64,000 nucleotides of DNA from a virus (IMGVR_UViG_3300007512_001664:32001-96000); one strand, 5' to 3'; positions 49,172 to 54,354 are shown, numbered from the stretch's first letter. Numbers and translations: made by a program. The notes: generated by a model not told the origin, from the sequence alone.

Positions 49172-49768
49172 GTGAAGTCATTTATCGATTTTATTAACGA
49201 GGCAGGAAAGTTTCCTACAGTTACATTAACTCAACCGTATTCGCAATCGCGTCCCGGAGCAGGAAAGCGGTTCCGTAATAAGAAAGACCCCAAAAGAGCC
49301 AATCAACAACAAGCTCTAAGAGATCAAGGCTATCGCTGGGATAAAGAAAAGAAAAAATGGGTTAAAGGCACTGTTCCTGTCAGTGCATCAACCGTGGAGT
49401 CTAAACAAGCCAAGTACATTGAAGAAGCCAAAAGAGGTCGTGAGAGTTATGAGACACGTAACCCAGATTTTGTTGATGCTTTATTAGATATTTTTTCTGC
49501 CCTCCAAGATCGAAACATAGAAAAAGGAATGACGTTAAATCGTTTTACAAATCAAGACGTTATTAAACTAATCGATGATCATGAAGTTTATGGTATTAAT
49601 GGCACTAATCCATGGCCTTCACAACATAAGGAGCGTTATATATCTAATCTTCGTCGTCTACTTGGAGTTGAAACACCCGGAAGAAAGCAAAGAAAAGATA
49701 CAGGAAAAGAGCAGGGTACTCATGATACAGGTGATGAATGGTCAGATTGGCTTAAACCGGAAGCATGA
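49172..49768 (+). CDS. basic modular protein with capsid-targeting-like leader
   Basis: MKSFIDFINE-AG. Confidence 0.7.
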   Translation: MKSFIDFINEAGKFPTVTLTQPYSQSRPGAGKRFRNKKDPKRANQQQALRDQGYRWDKEKKKWVKGTVPVSASTVESKQAKYIEEAKRGRESYETRNPDFVDALLDIFSALQDRNIEKGMTLNRFTNQDVIKLIDDHEVYGINGTNPWPSQHKERYISNLRRLLGVETPGRKQRKDTGKEQGTHDTGDEWSDWLKPEA

Positions 49769-51141
49769 GAGATACAGAAGCACAACTAATTTTTGAGACT
49801 TACGTAGAAGCAAAGGATGTAAGTCGACGAGATTTCTTTAAGCTATTAGGTAGAGGTGCTGCAACAGTCGCGACAGTTCCTTGGACTAAACTACTATCAG
49901 CTCCTAAGTTAGCTGCAGCAGTCACAGCACCATTTAAGATTGGTGCAGGTACTATACTTAATCCTCAGGCTCTGCATTGGTACTACGTTCGTAAGTTTGT
50001 TAACAAAGCAGAGGAAAGCGGTCTCACTCCAGTAGATGTAACAGATGAAAGGCATTACGAGGACCCAGTCGACGAGATATCTTTTGAAGCATTTGAGTGG
50101 GTTTCCAAGAATGTAATTAATATGTATGTTGATGATCGAGATCATGCTGTAGATAGAGAAGGAGACACGATAGCACCCACTATGGCTGAGTTGATCAATG
50201 ATCACGGATGGGATGAAGAGCATTTTATAGATGATCCTAATTTTCCGGAATGGGCGAAACCTCTTCTCACTAAAGATGAAGAAGATATGACTGATGAAGA
50301 GGAAGAAAAATATCAGAACTTAATGAATTCAAAGTGGTTTGATAAGCAGATGGTGATTAACTGGGATGGTGAGCAGGGCCATGGAGCTGATGAAGAGGTA
50401 GAAGAAATGCTAAGAAATTGGACTGGGTGGCATCACAAGTCGCCAGGGTCAGGTGATGTCGGGGGCCCCCTTCATGGTGATGAACTTATTACTACTGTCT
50501 TTGATTACATTGTAGATCTCAATCGCAAACGTAATGATGAGGGAAAGTTTATGGACATTAATGAGATAATGAAGATGGACTTTAAACAAGAGTTCTTACC
50601 TGGTGTTGTAAAGTATGCGAGAGAGCTGGCTGTAGCTCGATCAACTCGGTTGACAGGAAACCAACAGAGACAAGCAGGGCAAGATTTTCAAAAAGCTAAA
50701 GACGAGCTACAAAAAGACTACCTACCTAAAAGACCAGGCCAACCAGCTGAGTGGGATGATGTACATCCGGATGTTGAATGGTGGCACGAAGGTGATTTTA
50801 AATGGTGGGAGCGTCGGTTTGATGATGATGTTATTAATAGTGATAAGATCGAACAATATAAGGTTTTTGCTGATAAAATAATACAGAATCCTTTCGAAGA
50901 CGGCTTACTGTGGCCAACCACTGGGGAACCAGCTTATAGCCCTGAAGAAAGCAAAGCGATAATTAAAAAACTTAAACAAGAAGCACATGATTGGTTGAAA
51001 TGGTATGAGATGACAAAGGATAGTAGAAAGCCTAATCAAGCACATATCAAACATCCATATGGAGTAGGTAGACCTCAGAGCGGTTTACAAACAGCTAGTA
51101 CTAAGCCTACATTTAAACAGTTCTTTTTAATAAATAATTAA
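49765..51141 (+). CDS. acidic protein: type-B leader, twin-arginine motif, C-terminal TFKQFF
   Basis: MRDTEAQLIFETYVE-AKDVSRRDFFKLLG...PTFKQFFLINN. Confidence 0.75.
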   Translation: MRDTEAQLIFETYVEAKDVSRRDFFKLLGRGAATVATVPWTKLLSAPKLAAAVTAPFKIGAGTILNPQALHWYYVRKFVNKAEESGLTPVDVTDERHYEDPVDEISFEAFEWVSKNVINMYVDDRDHAVDREGDTIAPTMAELINDHGWDEEHFIDDPNFPEWAKPLLTKDEEDMTDEEEEKYQNLMNSKWFDKQMVINWDGEQGHGADEEVEEMLRNWTGWHHKSPGSGDVGGPLHGDELITTVFDYIVDLNRKRNDEGKFMDINEIMKMDFKQEFLPGVVKYARELAVARSTRLTGNQQRQAGQDFQKAKDELQKDYLPKRPGQPAEWDDVHPDVEWWHEGDFKWWERRFDDDVINSDKIEQYKVFADKIIQNPFEDGLLWPTTGEPAYSPEESKAIIKKLKQEAHDWLKWYEMTKDSRKPNQAHIKHPYGVGRPQSGLQTASTKPTFKQFFLINN

Positions 51142-51142
51142 G

Positions 51143-51466
51143 ATGAACGAACTTAGCAATGCAGTAACACCAACGTTTAATAAGGTAATTAAGCGTTTAT
51201 CTGAAGTAGAAGATGGTGATGCTTTATCAATAGCTAATGGTCATGTAAAAAATACCCCCAGTCTTGAGGGAACGCCTACAGTATATACACTTGATCCAGC
51301 AGATGGTAATTCTGGTATAGTACAATATTCAATGAAAAGAGAATCTGGCGGTGGATCAATGGTAGTAATTGTTAGAGAGGGTCAAGTTATCTGGTCTGGA
51401 ATTTCTATTGAAAGAGTAAGCAACATTGCAAATGCAGCGTTAATGAGCCCGGGAATAGGTAAATAA
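51143..51466 (+). CDS. hypothetical protein
   Basis: TAAATA upstream. Confidence 0.6.
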   Translation: MNELSNAVTPTFNKVIKRLSEVEDGDALSIANGHVKNTPSLEGTPTVYTLDPADGNSGIVQYSMKRESGGGSMVVIVREGQVIWSGISIERVSNIANAALMSPGIGK

Positions 51467-51474
51467 TTAGAACA

Positions 51475-52863: not shown

Positions 52864-53357
52864 GAGATAAAGACGCACATTTAATGATGGAAGCTTTACA
52901 AAAGGTGAATGAAGCTGAGCAAGATACACCTAGCGCTACAGCAGAAGTCCTACGACAAGTGCATAAAGAAATTGATGAGTATATGACTACGGCTGTATTT
53001 ACCGTAGGTGGTGAGGATTTAAAATGGAACGTACTTGCTATTATCAAGCAATATTTGACCGATAACCCGTCCGCCTTGCCGACGACCCCACGTGGATATG
53101 ATGAACCGTCAAATGAACCGTCAAATGATCCGTTGCAACGTGTCGCTAACTTAGCTATAGATAAAATATCAGACGGCGCACTCTCTAACCTTTCAATCAA
53201 TGATATTATTGATGTGTCTATAGAAGATATCGAGTCTGAGACAGGTGAACGACAATATGATCTTAATGAACCTAACACTCGTGATAGAATTAAAAATATA
53301 ATGATTACTGCGTTAACTAAAGATCGAAGCCATTTAATGAAAGGATATGAACGATGA
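52860..53357 (+). CDS. type-B leader cassette protein
   Basis: MRDKDAHLMMEALQKVNE-A. Confidence 0.75.
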   Translation: MRDKDAHLMMEALQKVNEAEQDTPSATAEVLRQVHKEIDEYMTTAVFTVGGEDLKWNVLAIIKQYLTDNPSALPTTPRGYDEPSNEPSNDPLQRVANLAIDKISDGALSNLSINDIIDVSIEDIESETGERQYDLNEPNTRDRIKNIMITALTKDRSHLMKGYER

Positions 53358-53758
53358 AAGATAAAGATGCACAACTAATGATGGAAGCTTTAAAAGAAGC
53401 TGTAGGTGATTATACGGACGACCCAACTGCCGATGATGGTGGAGCAGCAGCCCAGCGCCGCACCGGTGCGTGGTTAAATGCCTATGCACCTCGCGATGAG
53501 GGATTCGGTGGTGACTTTTTTGGCTTTTTTAATAGTATCGAATTTGACGAGGCCGGCGCTCATGCGCTGGTGCAATGGTTAACACAATATAAACAAAACT
53601 ATACAGGCCCAAATGTCGACCATCCAACACGGAAGCCGCCGCATGCACAGGGCTATCAGACTCGAGACCAGTATGACGCGGATGAAGCTGAGCGAGCGCG
53701 AGCGGATCGCGAAGCAGAAGCTCGGCCAGGCAGGCAACATGGCGGCTATCCGGGATAG
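53354..53758 (+). CDS. type-B leader cassette protein
   Basis: MKDKDAQLMMEALKE-A. Confidence 0.75.
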   Translation: MKDKDAQLMMEALKEAVGDYTDDPTADDGGAAAQRRTGAWLNAYAPRDEGFGGDFFGFFNSIEFDEAGAHALVQWLTQYKQNYTGPNVDHPTRKPPHAQGYQTRDQYDADEAERARADREAEARPGRQHGGYPG

Positions 53759-53785
53759 CAGGATACAGATAAGATTAATAATACA

Positions 53786-54052
53786 ATGAGAGATAAAGAC
53801 GCACAACTAATTTGGGAAACGCTTCAAGGTGCACCAGCGCCTTTACCAGTTGATAGAAATGGTAAAGAAATACAAGTAGGTGATATAATTCAAGGAGAAG
53901 CTCCTTCTAGGAATGAACCAACACCTGAGTTTGTTGTAGTAGGCGTTAGTCGTGATCCGAATATTGAAGATGCTATAAGTGTAGTTCCACTGGATGTTAA
54001 GACACAATCAGCTAAATGGTTTAGTGTTGTTGATAGTATAGGAGGTAATTAA
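53786..54052 (+). CDS. type-B leader cassette protein (SH3/YopX-like DxNGKEIxVGD motif)
   Basis: MRDKDAQLIWETL; VDRNGKEIQVGDII. Confidence 0.7.
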   Translation: MRDKDAQLIWETLQGAPAPLPVDRNGKEIQVGDIIQGEAPSRNEPTPEFVVVGVSRDPNIEDAISVVPLDVKTQSAKWFSVVDSIGGN

Positions 54053-54354
54053 TGTTAGATAGAGAACAAGATAAAGCAATTAACGAGTCCATGAAGCAAT
54101 TTCGTGAAGGTCCTCAATTACCTGGTTATACAGACGAGGATCAAGCAGAAGGTCTAGTAAGAGCTAATGTTAATAGATTACTTGCTAACATTGAAAAGAA
54201 CAATCCTCAGAGTGTAGATGAGTTTAAAAGCTATGCTCGAGGTGAAGTATTACGGTGGAGTAAAGAAAATTCACAGGTAACATCTGATACTGCAGAGATT
54301 ATGTATCAGTTACTCTTAAAGAACTCAGAAATTGAACAACCACCTGTTCAATGA
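54052..54354 (+). CDS. hypothetical protein with divergent leader
   Basis: MLDREQDKAINES. Confidence 0.6.
   Translation: MLDREQDKAINESMKQFREGPQLPGYTDEDQAEGLVRANVNRLLANIEKNNPQSVDEFKSYARGEVLRWSKENSQVTSDTAEIMYQLLLKNSEIEQPPVQ

Follow-up and report, generated by a model that had tools for sequence, protein, structure and literature searches.

An array of small genes in a marine T4-like phage encodes proteins that share a short, nearly identical N-terminus while their bodies are mostly unrelated. The array lies in a 64,000-nucleotide stretch of viral DNA (IMGVR_UViG_3300007512_001664:32001-96000), referred to here as the window; positions are those of the window unless the genome or another contig is named, and genes are designated by their first base (e.g., g49765). 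We estimate the probability at about 0.6 that this N-terminus, termed leader 1, and the leaders with which it alternates in related phages are interchangeable head-targeting propeptides, cut by the prohead protease gp21, that load a hypervariable cargo into the phage head.

Leader 1 is found at the start of otherwise unrelated genes

Eight genes, all of them in the window, begin with M-[KR]-D-K-D-A-Q-L-[MI]-[MW]-E-A. The initial annotation had pointed to near-identical DNA at the starts of the array genes, and this was borne out: the open reading frames at 52275, 52591, 52860, and 53354 match a single 35-nt pattern from the ATG with zero mismatches (expected number 0, from 100 shuffles), and a variant of the pattern is present at 53786. 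Further variants listed at 49765, 51475, and 24761 were confirmed as well, and the possible one at 54052 was found to carry a hybrid leader, MLDREQDKAINE↓S (here and below, an arrow marks a cleavage-type site), with MLDREQDKLIFE↓A in relatives forming a bridge to the main type. When all six frames of the genome were searched, the peptide core occurred eight times, each time at the start of an open reading frame and inside the window. Unbiased clustering of all N-termini encoded by the genome returned leader 1 as the largest cluster and the sole one on unrelated bodies, the remaining clusters representing true paralogues, Rossmann folds, or signal peptides. Conservation begins exactly at the ATG, and the DNA upstream of it is unconserved.

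To follow the leader into metagenomes, we used a degenerate DNA pattern for D-A-(Q/H)-L-M-M-E-A in which all synonymous codons were allowed. It matched 53 metagenome contigs, 45 of which, all marine, carry 93 further leader-1 genes, and in every one of these genes the leader sits at the start codon. Two or more leader-1 genes are present on 22 contigs, with a maximum of nine on one. The logo derived from 102 unique proteins reads M-[KR]-D-[KITN]-[DE]-A-[QH]-L-[MI]-[MW]-E-A-[LY]; Leu8 and Glu11 never vary, only Met or Ile occurs at position 9, and 86 proteins have Ala at position 12. AlphaFold2, given 73 aligned N-termini, predicts a helix from residue 4 with moderate confidence (predicted local distance difference test [pLDDT] scores of 79 and 71 for the first two ten-residue blocks). 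A tblastn search with the 22-residue leader region gave no match at E 10, and pattern scans of IMG/VR returned mostly chance internal matches beyond one sample. Translation from Met9 or Met10 was considered as an alternative start and excluded, because the I-W variants of the leader have no such codons.

Glutamate-ending sites within and behind the leader

In T4, gp21 cleaves after L/I-x-Glu, often preceding Ala (PMC9026906, PMC8442874), and the internal proteins begin with the 10-residue capsid-targeting sequence (CTS), MKTYQEFIAE (Mullaney and Black 1996, as summarised in PMC9026906 and PMC8442874). Leader 1 terminates in [MI]-x-E↓A at residue 11, with Met (70%) or Ile (30%) at P3 and Ala in 84% of cases at P1', an ending of the gp21 type in which the Met at P3 is a relaxed fit. 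A second [LIVMFY]-x-E occurs no more than 12 residues past the leader Glu in 55 of 87 proteins, compared to 13-14 of 87 in controls taken from three stretches of the same proteins; when a small residue was required to follow, the count was 35, compared to 2-4 in the controls. The prior claim that most leaders end in (V/L)-x-E followed by A, D, or G therefore holds statistically, and the cut may fall at this second site (residue ~15-20) rather than just after the 11-residue core. Sites of the same kind are present in the head proteins of the phage: the gp22-like scaffold holds 19 hydrophobic-x-Glu sites, of which LLE↓A and IEE↓A are conserved across 72 homologues, and in gp23 an L-R-E↓G lies upstream of the aligned start of mature T4 gp23, where the end of the propeptide is expected.

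Different leaders are exchanged on orthologous bodies

The genome also encodes leaders of the T4 type. About ten had been proposed initially, and the leader proved to be real but less frequent: five clear N-terminal copies were found (at 2490, 37003, 48384, 49172, and, more loosely, 3869), along with two weaker starts (591 and 47064) and single copies inside g1474 and at the C-terminus of g49765. They occur in the same genome and on the same contigs as leader 1, and match IPI, IPII, and IPIII in the T4 record, where IPI starts MKTFKEF. The genes at 2490, 37003, 48384, and 49172 fit the CTS sequence, with its aromatic residues at positions 4 and 7, whereas leader 1 and a further type, leader 3, do not.

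The strongest new evidence on the function of leader 1 is provided by swaps between leaders. In the family of the large protein g49765, the start of the body is invariant (SRRxFL..GRGAATVAAVPWTKLLS), and what precedes it differs. In the window and in contig L050 it is leader 1; in L046 the orthologue has a T4-type leader, MKLSSYKDHFQE↓A, with a GTG start right behind ACTAAATAATTAG, and past the leader the L046 and L050 proteins are 91% identical over 440 aa. In L047, L074, and L079 the orthologues carry a short leader, MYSIVQIVLE↓A, and in L054 and L078 the same stretch is internal to a 934-residue protein, right after LTFKQFFNE↓A. All four N-terminal forms meet in the alignment at a hydrophobic-x-E-A immediately ahead of the body. 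By sequence comparison, then, leader 1 is a replacement for the T4-type leader on orthologous bodies.

Leader 3, of about 22 residues (M..Q.RT.RE.GL..I-x-E-S-M-Y), is exchanged with leader 1 in the same manner. The genes L043:3562 and L050:10064 differ in this way on bodies that are 82% identical, and further swaps were found between g51475 and L044:2809 and between L054:5521 and L087:1961. Hybrids, MRDKDDRLIAESMY and MLDREQDKAINES (the latter in g54052), connect the leader types, and the only feature common to all of them is (L/I)-hydrophobic-x-E-(A/S)-(L/M/Y). Different leaders are present on one contig, and therefore one phage uses several. Judged from these alignments, there are at least three interchangeable leader types in this lineage.

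The T4-type motif is not restricted to N-termini. The protein encoded by g49765 ends right after a CTS-like TFKQFF (51109-51126), and at the CTS-like motif of its homologue the gene is split in the related contig G002 and fused in the related contig G001. These junctions suggest either polyproteins that are cut there or a targeting motif that is usable at either end. Separately, we observed (T/S)-F-K-(E/Q)-(F/Y/H)-F at the C-terminus of large proteins or at module junctions in L043 (1041 and 1650), L050 (7359 and 7956), and L054 (minus strand; 1994, 3473, and 4070).

The cassette bodies are acidic and hypervariable

The description of the bodies as unrelated and acidic was upheld. BLASTP finds no similarity among those of the window except for shuffled modules, in that residues 187-249 of g51475 match residues 15-80 of g52860, and their isoelectric points (pI) are 4.3-5.8. 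The C-terminal module of g52860 is conserved in G001, G002, and metagenome contigs. Ninety complete bodies fell into 30 single-linkage clusters, and leader-1 proteins overall have a median length of 130 residues and a median pI of 4.7, with 91% below pI 6. Pfam, PHROGs, and NCBIfam gave no function for any cassette, and a homologue search with g53354 among 5.8 billion proteins returned only itself. Residues 18-88 of g51475 match PHROGs of unknown function, and the protein has a weak zinc-finger (anti-TRAP-like) match; Atlas language-model look-ups with g51475 and g51143 yielded nothing usable. Zinc-finger motifs of the form CxxCxGxG, of the DnaJ or anti-TRAP type, were seen in g51475 (residues ~120-150), L044 (2462-2797), L043 (2112-2684), L054, and L071, and the cassettes with these motifs reach 16 bits with NCBIfam RtpA, far under the cut-off.

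Two IMG/VR contigs from one sample, G002 (gp23 92% identical) and G001 (76%), have syntenic arrays in which the leader is the same and most of the cassettes differ. A comparison of array content had been suggested at the outset, and it revealed hypervariable cassettes despite the close relatedness of the capsid protein: G002 retains a flanking gene at 92.5% identity, but the majority of its cassettes are not orthologues of those in the window. The G001 and G002 contigs (L043 and L044, position 1-10) begin inside the g49765 homologue. Short-read Logan contigs (run X2) break at 49572/49852, 52620/52908, and 53416/53849, which are leader repeats, and Logan contigs from four marine DNA runs, in which the phage is present in several studies, also break at leader repeats. 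Since repeated leader DNA breaks assemblies, such arrays are probably under-represented in databases. We counted no recombination events from the Logan contigs, given how short the pieces were and how weakly their joints were supported.

Expression context and constraint at the DNA level

The sequence ATAAATA(A/T)TT is found 5-12 nt upstream of 31 genes on the + strand, including gp21, g24761, g51143, and the gene that follows the portal (e.g., window 24749-24760 and 51130-51142; genome 5081-5092 and 6921-6939), and in the form ATAAATA(A/T)TTAT it resembles the T4 late promoter, TATAAATA. Upstream of g51475 is GTAAATAATT, with GTAAATA at 51459..51465 (+), 9 nt from the start, and counterparts of this gene in relatives carry the full late-like motif, ATAAATAATT, at the equivalent place. 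Given that the motif lies only 5-12 nt before the start, late transcripts would begin on or beside the start codon and be leaderless, or nearly so, at the RNA level, and many late-motif genes are without a Shine-Dalgarno sequence. In the tightly packed block from 47064 to 55187, gaps between genes range from -4 to 27 nt, and sigma70-type matches are at chance frequency, the two best of the scanned region lying just downstream (56018 and 57138). Late-only expression would fit packaged proteins, although we regard it as context rather than proof.

Within the leader, variation falls on third codon positions, and synonymous codons are used at several sites: Leu8 is encoded by CTA, TTA, or CTG, Ile9 by ATT, ATC, or ATA, and Glu11 varies too, while codon 5 uses all four GAN codons, yet only for Asp or Glu. 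Other positions are strongly skewed, namely Ala6 (GCA in 74/78, compared to a background of 0.35), Gln7 (CAA in 64/64), and Asp5 (GAC in 56/70, compared to 0.20), and such uniform synonymous sites suggest DNA-level homogenisation or a preference at the RNA level. From the pattern of codons, the peptide and the DNA layers are both constrained. Folding of the leader region is no better than that of shuffled sequences (z 0 to +1.7), so the region is open, and a structured RNA element was rejected. T4 behaves likewise: in its record, the 30-nt leader sequences of ipII and ipIII are identical.

Head module and distribution of the phage

The window corresponds to bases 32001-96000 of a 200,819-bp viral genome that has direct terminal repeats, is rated complete, and has a G+C content of 33.6%. 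The genome is T4-like, with the portal (gp20), gp21, a gp22-like scaffold, and gp23 encoded together in one head module. The protease gp21 belongs to Peptidase_S77 (E 6.5e-31), gp23 matches the major capsid protein (E 5e-90), and the scaffold is a helical protein of 294 residues; the prohead protease and scaffold core on which a CTS system depends are thus both encoded. The closest proteins from deposited phages are those of cyanophages, with about 31-38% identity for gp23 and at most 39.5% for gp21. More than 3,000 homologues of gp21 were found at E <1e-10, and two among the matches listed bear Tara names. When the array was compared by megablast with 50,697 phage records, nothing matched. 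The locus is present in marine and seawater DNA runs from several studies.

Proposed function of the leaders and alternative explanations

Based on these data, leader 1 would be a propeptide whose address comprises 11 residues, M-[KR]-D-x-[DE]-A-[QH]-L-[MI]-[MW]-E, and is probably helical; in most members it is followed by a short spacer and a second hydrophobic-x-Glu↓Ala/Ser site. Expression of the proteins would be late, with T4-type late-promoter-like motifs ahead of a tightly coupled operon. During prohead assembly the proteins would be incorporated into the gp22 scaffold core and then trimmed by gp21 after Glu at one or both sites; once trimmed, they would stay inside the head as it fills and be delivered to the next host along with the DNA. 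Leader 1, leader 3, and the T4-type leader would serve as exchangeable address modules in the lineage. Near-identical leader DNA could act as a crossover point, and bodies and body modules would therefore be exchanged quickly. The initial annotation had proposed a recombining library of packaged proteins that uses a second targeting code. The library is partly supported, by the presence of gp21 and gp22, the T4-type leader, the swaps, the protease-type sites, the late-like motifs, the hypervariability, and a homogenisation of leader DNA like that of T4 ipII/ipIII, but the number of codes had to be revised, as there are at least three and not two.

The array appears to work like the T4 internal-protein/CTS system combined with the hyperplastic ip loci. 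As with IPI-III of T4, a leader of about 10 residues is found at the N-terminus of unrelated small proteins, with a hydrophobic-x-Glu before Ala; gp21 and gp22 are present, neighboring genes share leader DNA, the loci are hypervariable, and the T4-type leader itself occurs here. It departs from the T4 system in its larger size, with up to 9 genes per contig and at least 30 body families, and in the tandem pair of cleavage-type sites found in most members; moreover, leaders swap on the same body, and CTS-like motifs lie inside or at the C-terminus of large proteins. The T-even ip loci have been described as hyperplastic, with >30 IP variants (Repoila et al. 1994; Comeau et al. 2007, as cited in PMC2839356 and PMC12373910), and resemble the array in the cassette-like replacement between close relatives, in which the leader alone is retained. 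Exchange at those loci has been tied to promoter and stem-loop elements between genes (PMC2839356), whereas in the array conservation of the DNA begins with the ATG, the 0-27 nt of intergenic DNA are unconserved, and there is no hairpin; with gaps of -4 to 27 nt, we found no conserved intergenic promoter and stem-loop of the kind that defines PeSL-type cassettes. Ejection and inner-body proteins of the giant phages phiKZ and SPN3US have propeptides cut after Glu by gp21-like proteases (PMC9026906, PMC5694885). In those phages, as proposed here, numerous proteins inside the head are processed behind a short Glu-ending motif, sites in the propeptides are redundant, and large precursors are divided by cleavage, but the phiKZ and SPN3US propeptides are long rather than one shared short leader and the genome organisation of these phages is not T4-like. 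T4 Ip1-3 are injected inhibitors of GmrSD-type restriction (PMC12373910), which offers a rationale for late, packaged, fast-evolving small proteins that share just a leader, although no cassette here resembles Ip1-3.

Several observations weigh against head targeting. The sequence of leader 1 is not similar to that of the T4 CTS; its residues 4 and 7 are not aromatic, and its P3 is mostly Met rather than Leu or Ile. The cargo is acidic, with a median pI of 4.7 compared to 7.9-9.7 for mature T4 IPI-III, and it departs from the basic, DNA-associated character of mature proteins in the CTS system. The block contains a ribosomal protein S21 gene, whose product is unlikely to be packaged, and the Tat-like motif directly after the leader in the large member (see below) might mean export. 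Many instances of the leader share ancestry, and their counts therefore overstate independence. Finally, the locus was found in none of the RNA runs.

An alternative that we consider doubtful is that another common partner docks on the leader. This partner might be the product of g51143, a host target, a chaperone, or a factor in degradation or regulation, and the proteins would act late in the producing cell, unpackaged and uncut. A short predicted helix on unrelated bodies, an acidic cargo unlike the T4 internal proteins, and a conserved, leaderless g51143 that always adjoins the array would all fit this explanation, and a complex prediction for gp21, gp22, and a leader N-terminus (score 0.00, run without controls) argues neither for nor against binding. 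Docking, however, leaves unexplained the invariant Glu and the enrichment of a second hydrophobic-x-Glu↓small site, as well as the interchange with the T4-type leader at the same alignment column. It is distinctly less probable that the leader is mainly a nucleic-acid element, either a purine-rich, unstructured region for re-initiation in a closely coupled operon without Shine-Dalgarno sites or a recombination hot spot at which cassettes are shuffled, with the peptide incidental. The synonymous skew at Ala6, Gln7, and Asp5 goes well past codon usage, starts overlap stops in an open region, and assemblies break at the leader repeats, but Leu8, Ile9, and codon 5 vary synonymously while the residue class is kept, and where leaders of a different DNA sequence take the place of leader 1, only the hydrophobic-x-Glu↓Ala end is retained. 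Moreover, leader 1 is also found on solitary or first-in-operon genes with their own promoter motif (24761, 51475, and L020), and leaderless genes of the same operon are coupled equally well. A role for the nucleic acid is best viewed as a second layer and not as an alternative.

Export is a very improbable function for the leader as a whole. If the leader were the n-region of an export signal, of the twin-arginine translocation (Tat) or another type, the proteins would be secreted from the infected cell, and the large protein does have a Tat-like SRRDFF..GRGAATVA directly past the predicted cleavage site (window 49822-49870; g49765 residues 20-36), conserved as SRRxFL..GRGAATVA in L046, L047, L050, L054, and L078; a second Tat-like stretch, RRGFLSTLAKG, is present in g47064 (residues 10-23; window 47091-47130). 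The language-model (Atlas) neighbors of g49765 are Tat-signal proteins (score 0.84), which we take as a lead only, and TAT_signal is the only Pfam family that appears on segments of this family. Its scores, though, are 7-15 bits against a cut-off of 22.7, NCBIfam TIGR01409 gave no hit on the family, and the small cassettes, which make up 95% of members, have neither an Arg-Arg motif nor a hydrophobic stretch. The L054 and L078 proteins have their Tat-like stretch at residue ~246, internally and after the FNE↓A site, where it could function only after proteolysis. An AlphaFold2 model of g49765 from a 10-row alignment had a mean pLDDT of 51.6, too poor for a fold search. An elaboration of head targeting that would accommodate these stretches, and which we consider unlikely, is a multi-code address in which at least three unrelated, exchangeable leaders, one of them of the classical T4 type, load a hypervariable acidic library, some members are polyproteins cut at CTS-like motifs, and the trimmed large cargo, being Tat-like, is passed to the periplasm of the new host. 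We give the least credence of all to the leader being the recognition sequence of a modifying enzyme, as in ribosomally synthesized and post-translationally modified peptides (RiPPs) or with a radical-SAM-type enzyme. Tandem genes with a conserved leader and a hypervariable remainder do resemble precursor arrays, but the 'cores' are acidic proteins of 80-900 residues rather than short peptides rich in Cys, Ser, or Thr, and no maturase-like family was found among the neighbors scanned in the window, so that neither the adjacent maturase nor the short modified cores of a RiPP or radical-SAM array are seen. A radical-SAM tag was rejected on the ground that the sole radical-SAM gene, at genome 192 kb, is >100 kb from the array.

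Should the leader prove to be a head-loading tag, one could read the injected cargo of widespread, uncultured marine T4-like phages from sequence, and >100 proteins in at least 30 families would become a candidate set for counter-defence or takeover in hosts not yet culturable. The capsid-targeting code would be degenerate and modular, given three leaders that share only a hydrophobic-x-Glu↓Ala end, which would bear on how T4 cores recognize cargo and on the design of phage vectors that package proteins. The leader swaps on bodies that are 82-91% identical are natural experiments on this question.

Organization of the array and its surroundings

The packed block opens with g47064 (47064..48383, +; 439 aa), which has a weak T4-type start, MSFEPFIQN. 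It is followed by an acidic protein of 194 aa with the T4-type leader MIPFKQYIAE↓A (48384..48968, +), by ribosomal protein S21 (48969-49163, +; Pfam Ribosomal_S21, E 2.2e-17), and by a basic protein of 198 aa (pI 9.5) with the T4-type leader MKSFIDFINE↓A and a GTG start (49172..49768, +) behind CTAAATACTTAT. The S21 gene, located between two genes with T4-type leaders, is kept at the equivalent place in L046, L050, and L054. The large protein g49765 (49765..51141, +; 458 aa) combines the leader-1 form MRDTEAQLIFE↓T with a subsequent YVE↓A and a large acidic body. Next is the leaderless g51143 (51143..51466, +; 107 aa), with the late-promoter-like ATAAATA at 51130..51136 (+), 6 nt upstream of its start; this gene lies between the large protein and the array in all relatives.

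The first array cassette, g51475 (51475..52269, +; 264 aa), carries the leader-1 variant MKYDTEAQLIWE↓A and then VEE↓G. Four cassettes with leader 1 and its MME↓A follow, each with a second site: g52275 (52275..52589, +; 104 aa; VNE↓A), g52591 (52591..52863, +; 90 aa; LQE↓D), the mosaic g52860 (52860..53357, +; 165 aa; VNE↓A), and g53354 (53354..53758, +; 134 aa; LKE↓A). The variant in g53786 (53786..54052, +; 88 aa) reads IWE↓T, and a near-identical copy of this cassette is present in L084. The gene with the hybrid leader, g54052, occupies 54052..54354 (+; 100 aa). Outside the array, the solitary leader-1 gene g24761 (24761..25324, +; 187 aa; MDHEGQLIWE↓A, then LQE↓A) lies directly behind ATAAATAATTAT (24749-24760), and in L078, where the array begins with the large leader-1 protein, the orthologue of g24761 lies a short way upstream of that protein.

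T4-type leaders at a distance from the block are those of a 388-aa protein (2490..3656, +; MKTFKQFFE↓T) and a 320-aa protein (37003..37965, +; MKTFKDFYE↓D). The looser one, MLTYKKYFPLYE↓S, starts a DUF6267 protein (3869-5119, +; E 5e-87). At 591-1451 (+), a protein with a LysM domain (E 4e-16) and a sub-threshold lysozyme-like match has the start MTFKQLSD, near to the T4 type, and lies behind TATAAATAATTTAA. The portal (genome 3291-5084) contains P-K-F-K-D-F-Y, the core of the T4-type leader, at residue ~44, possibly by chance. Finally, two adjoining proteins of 330 residues encoded on the minus strand (31416-33385) resemble pilins at their N-termini (PHROG pilin families, E about 1e-7).

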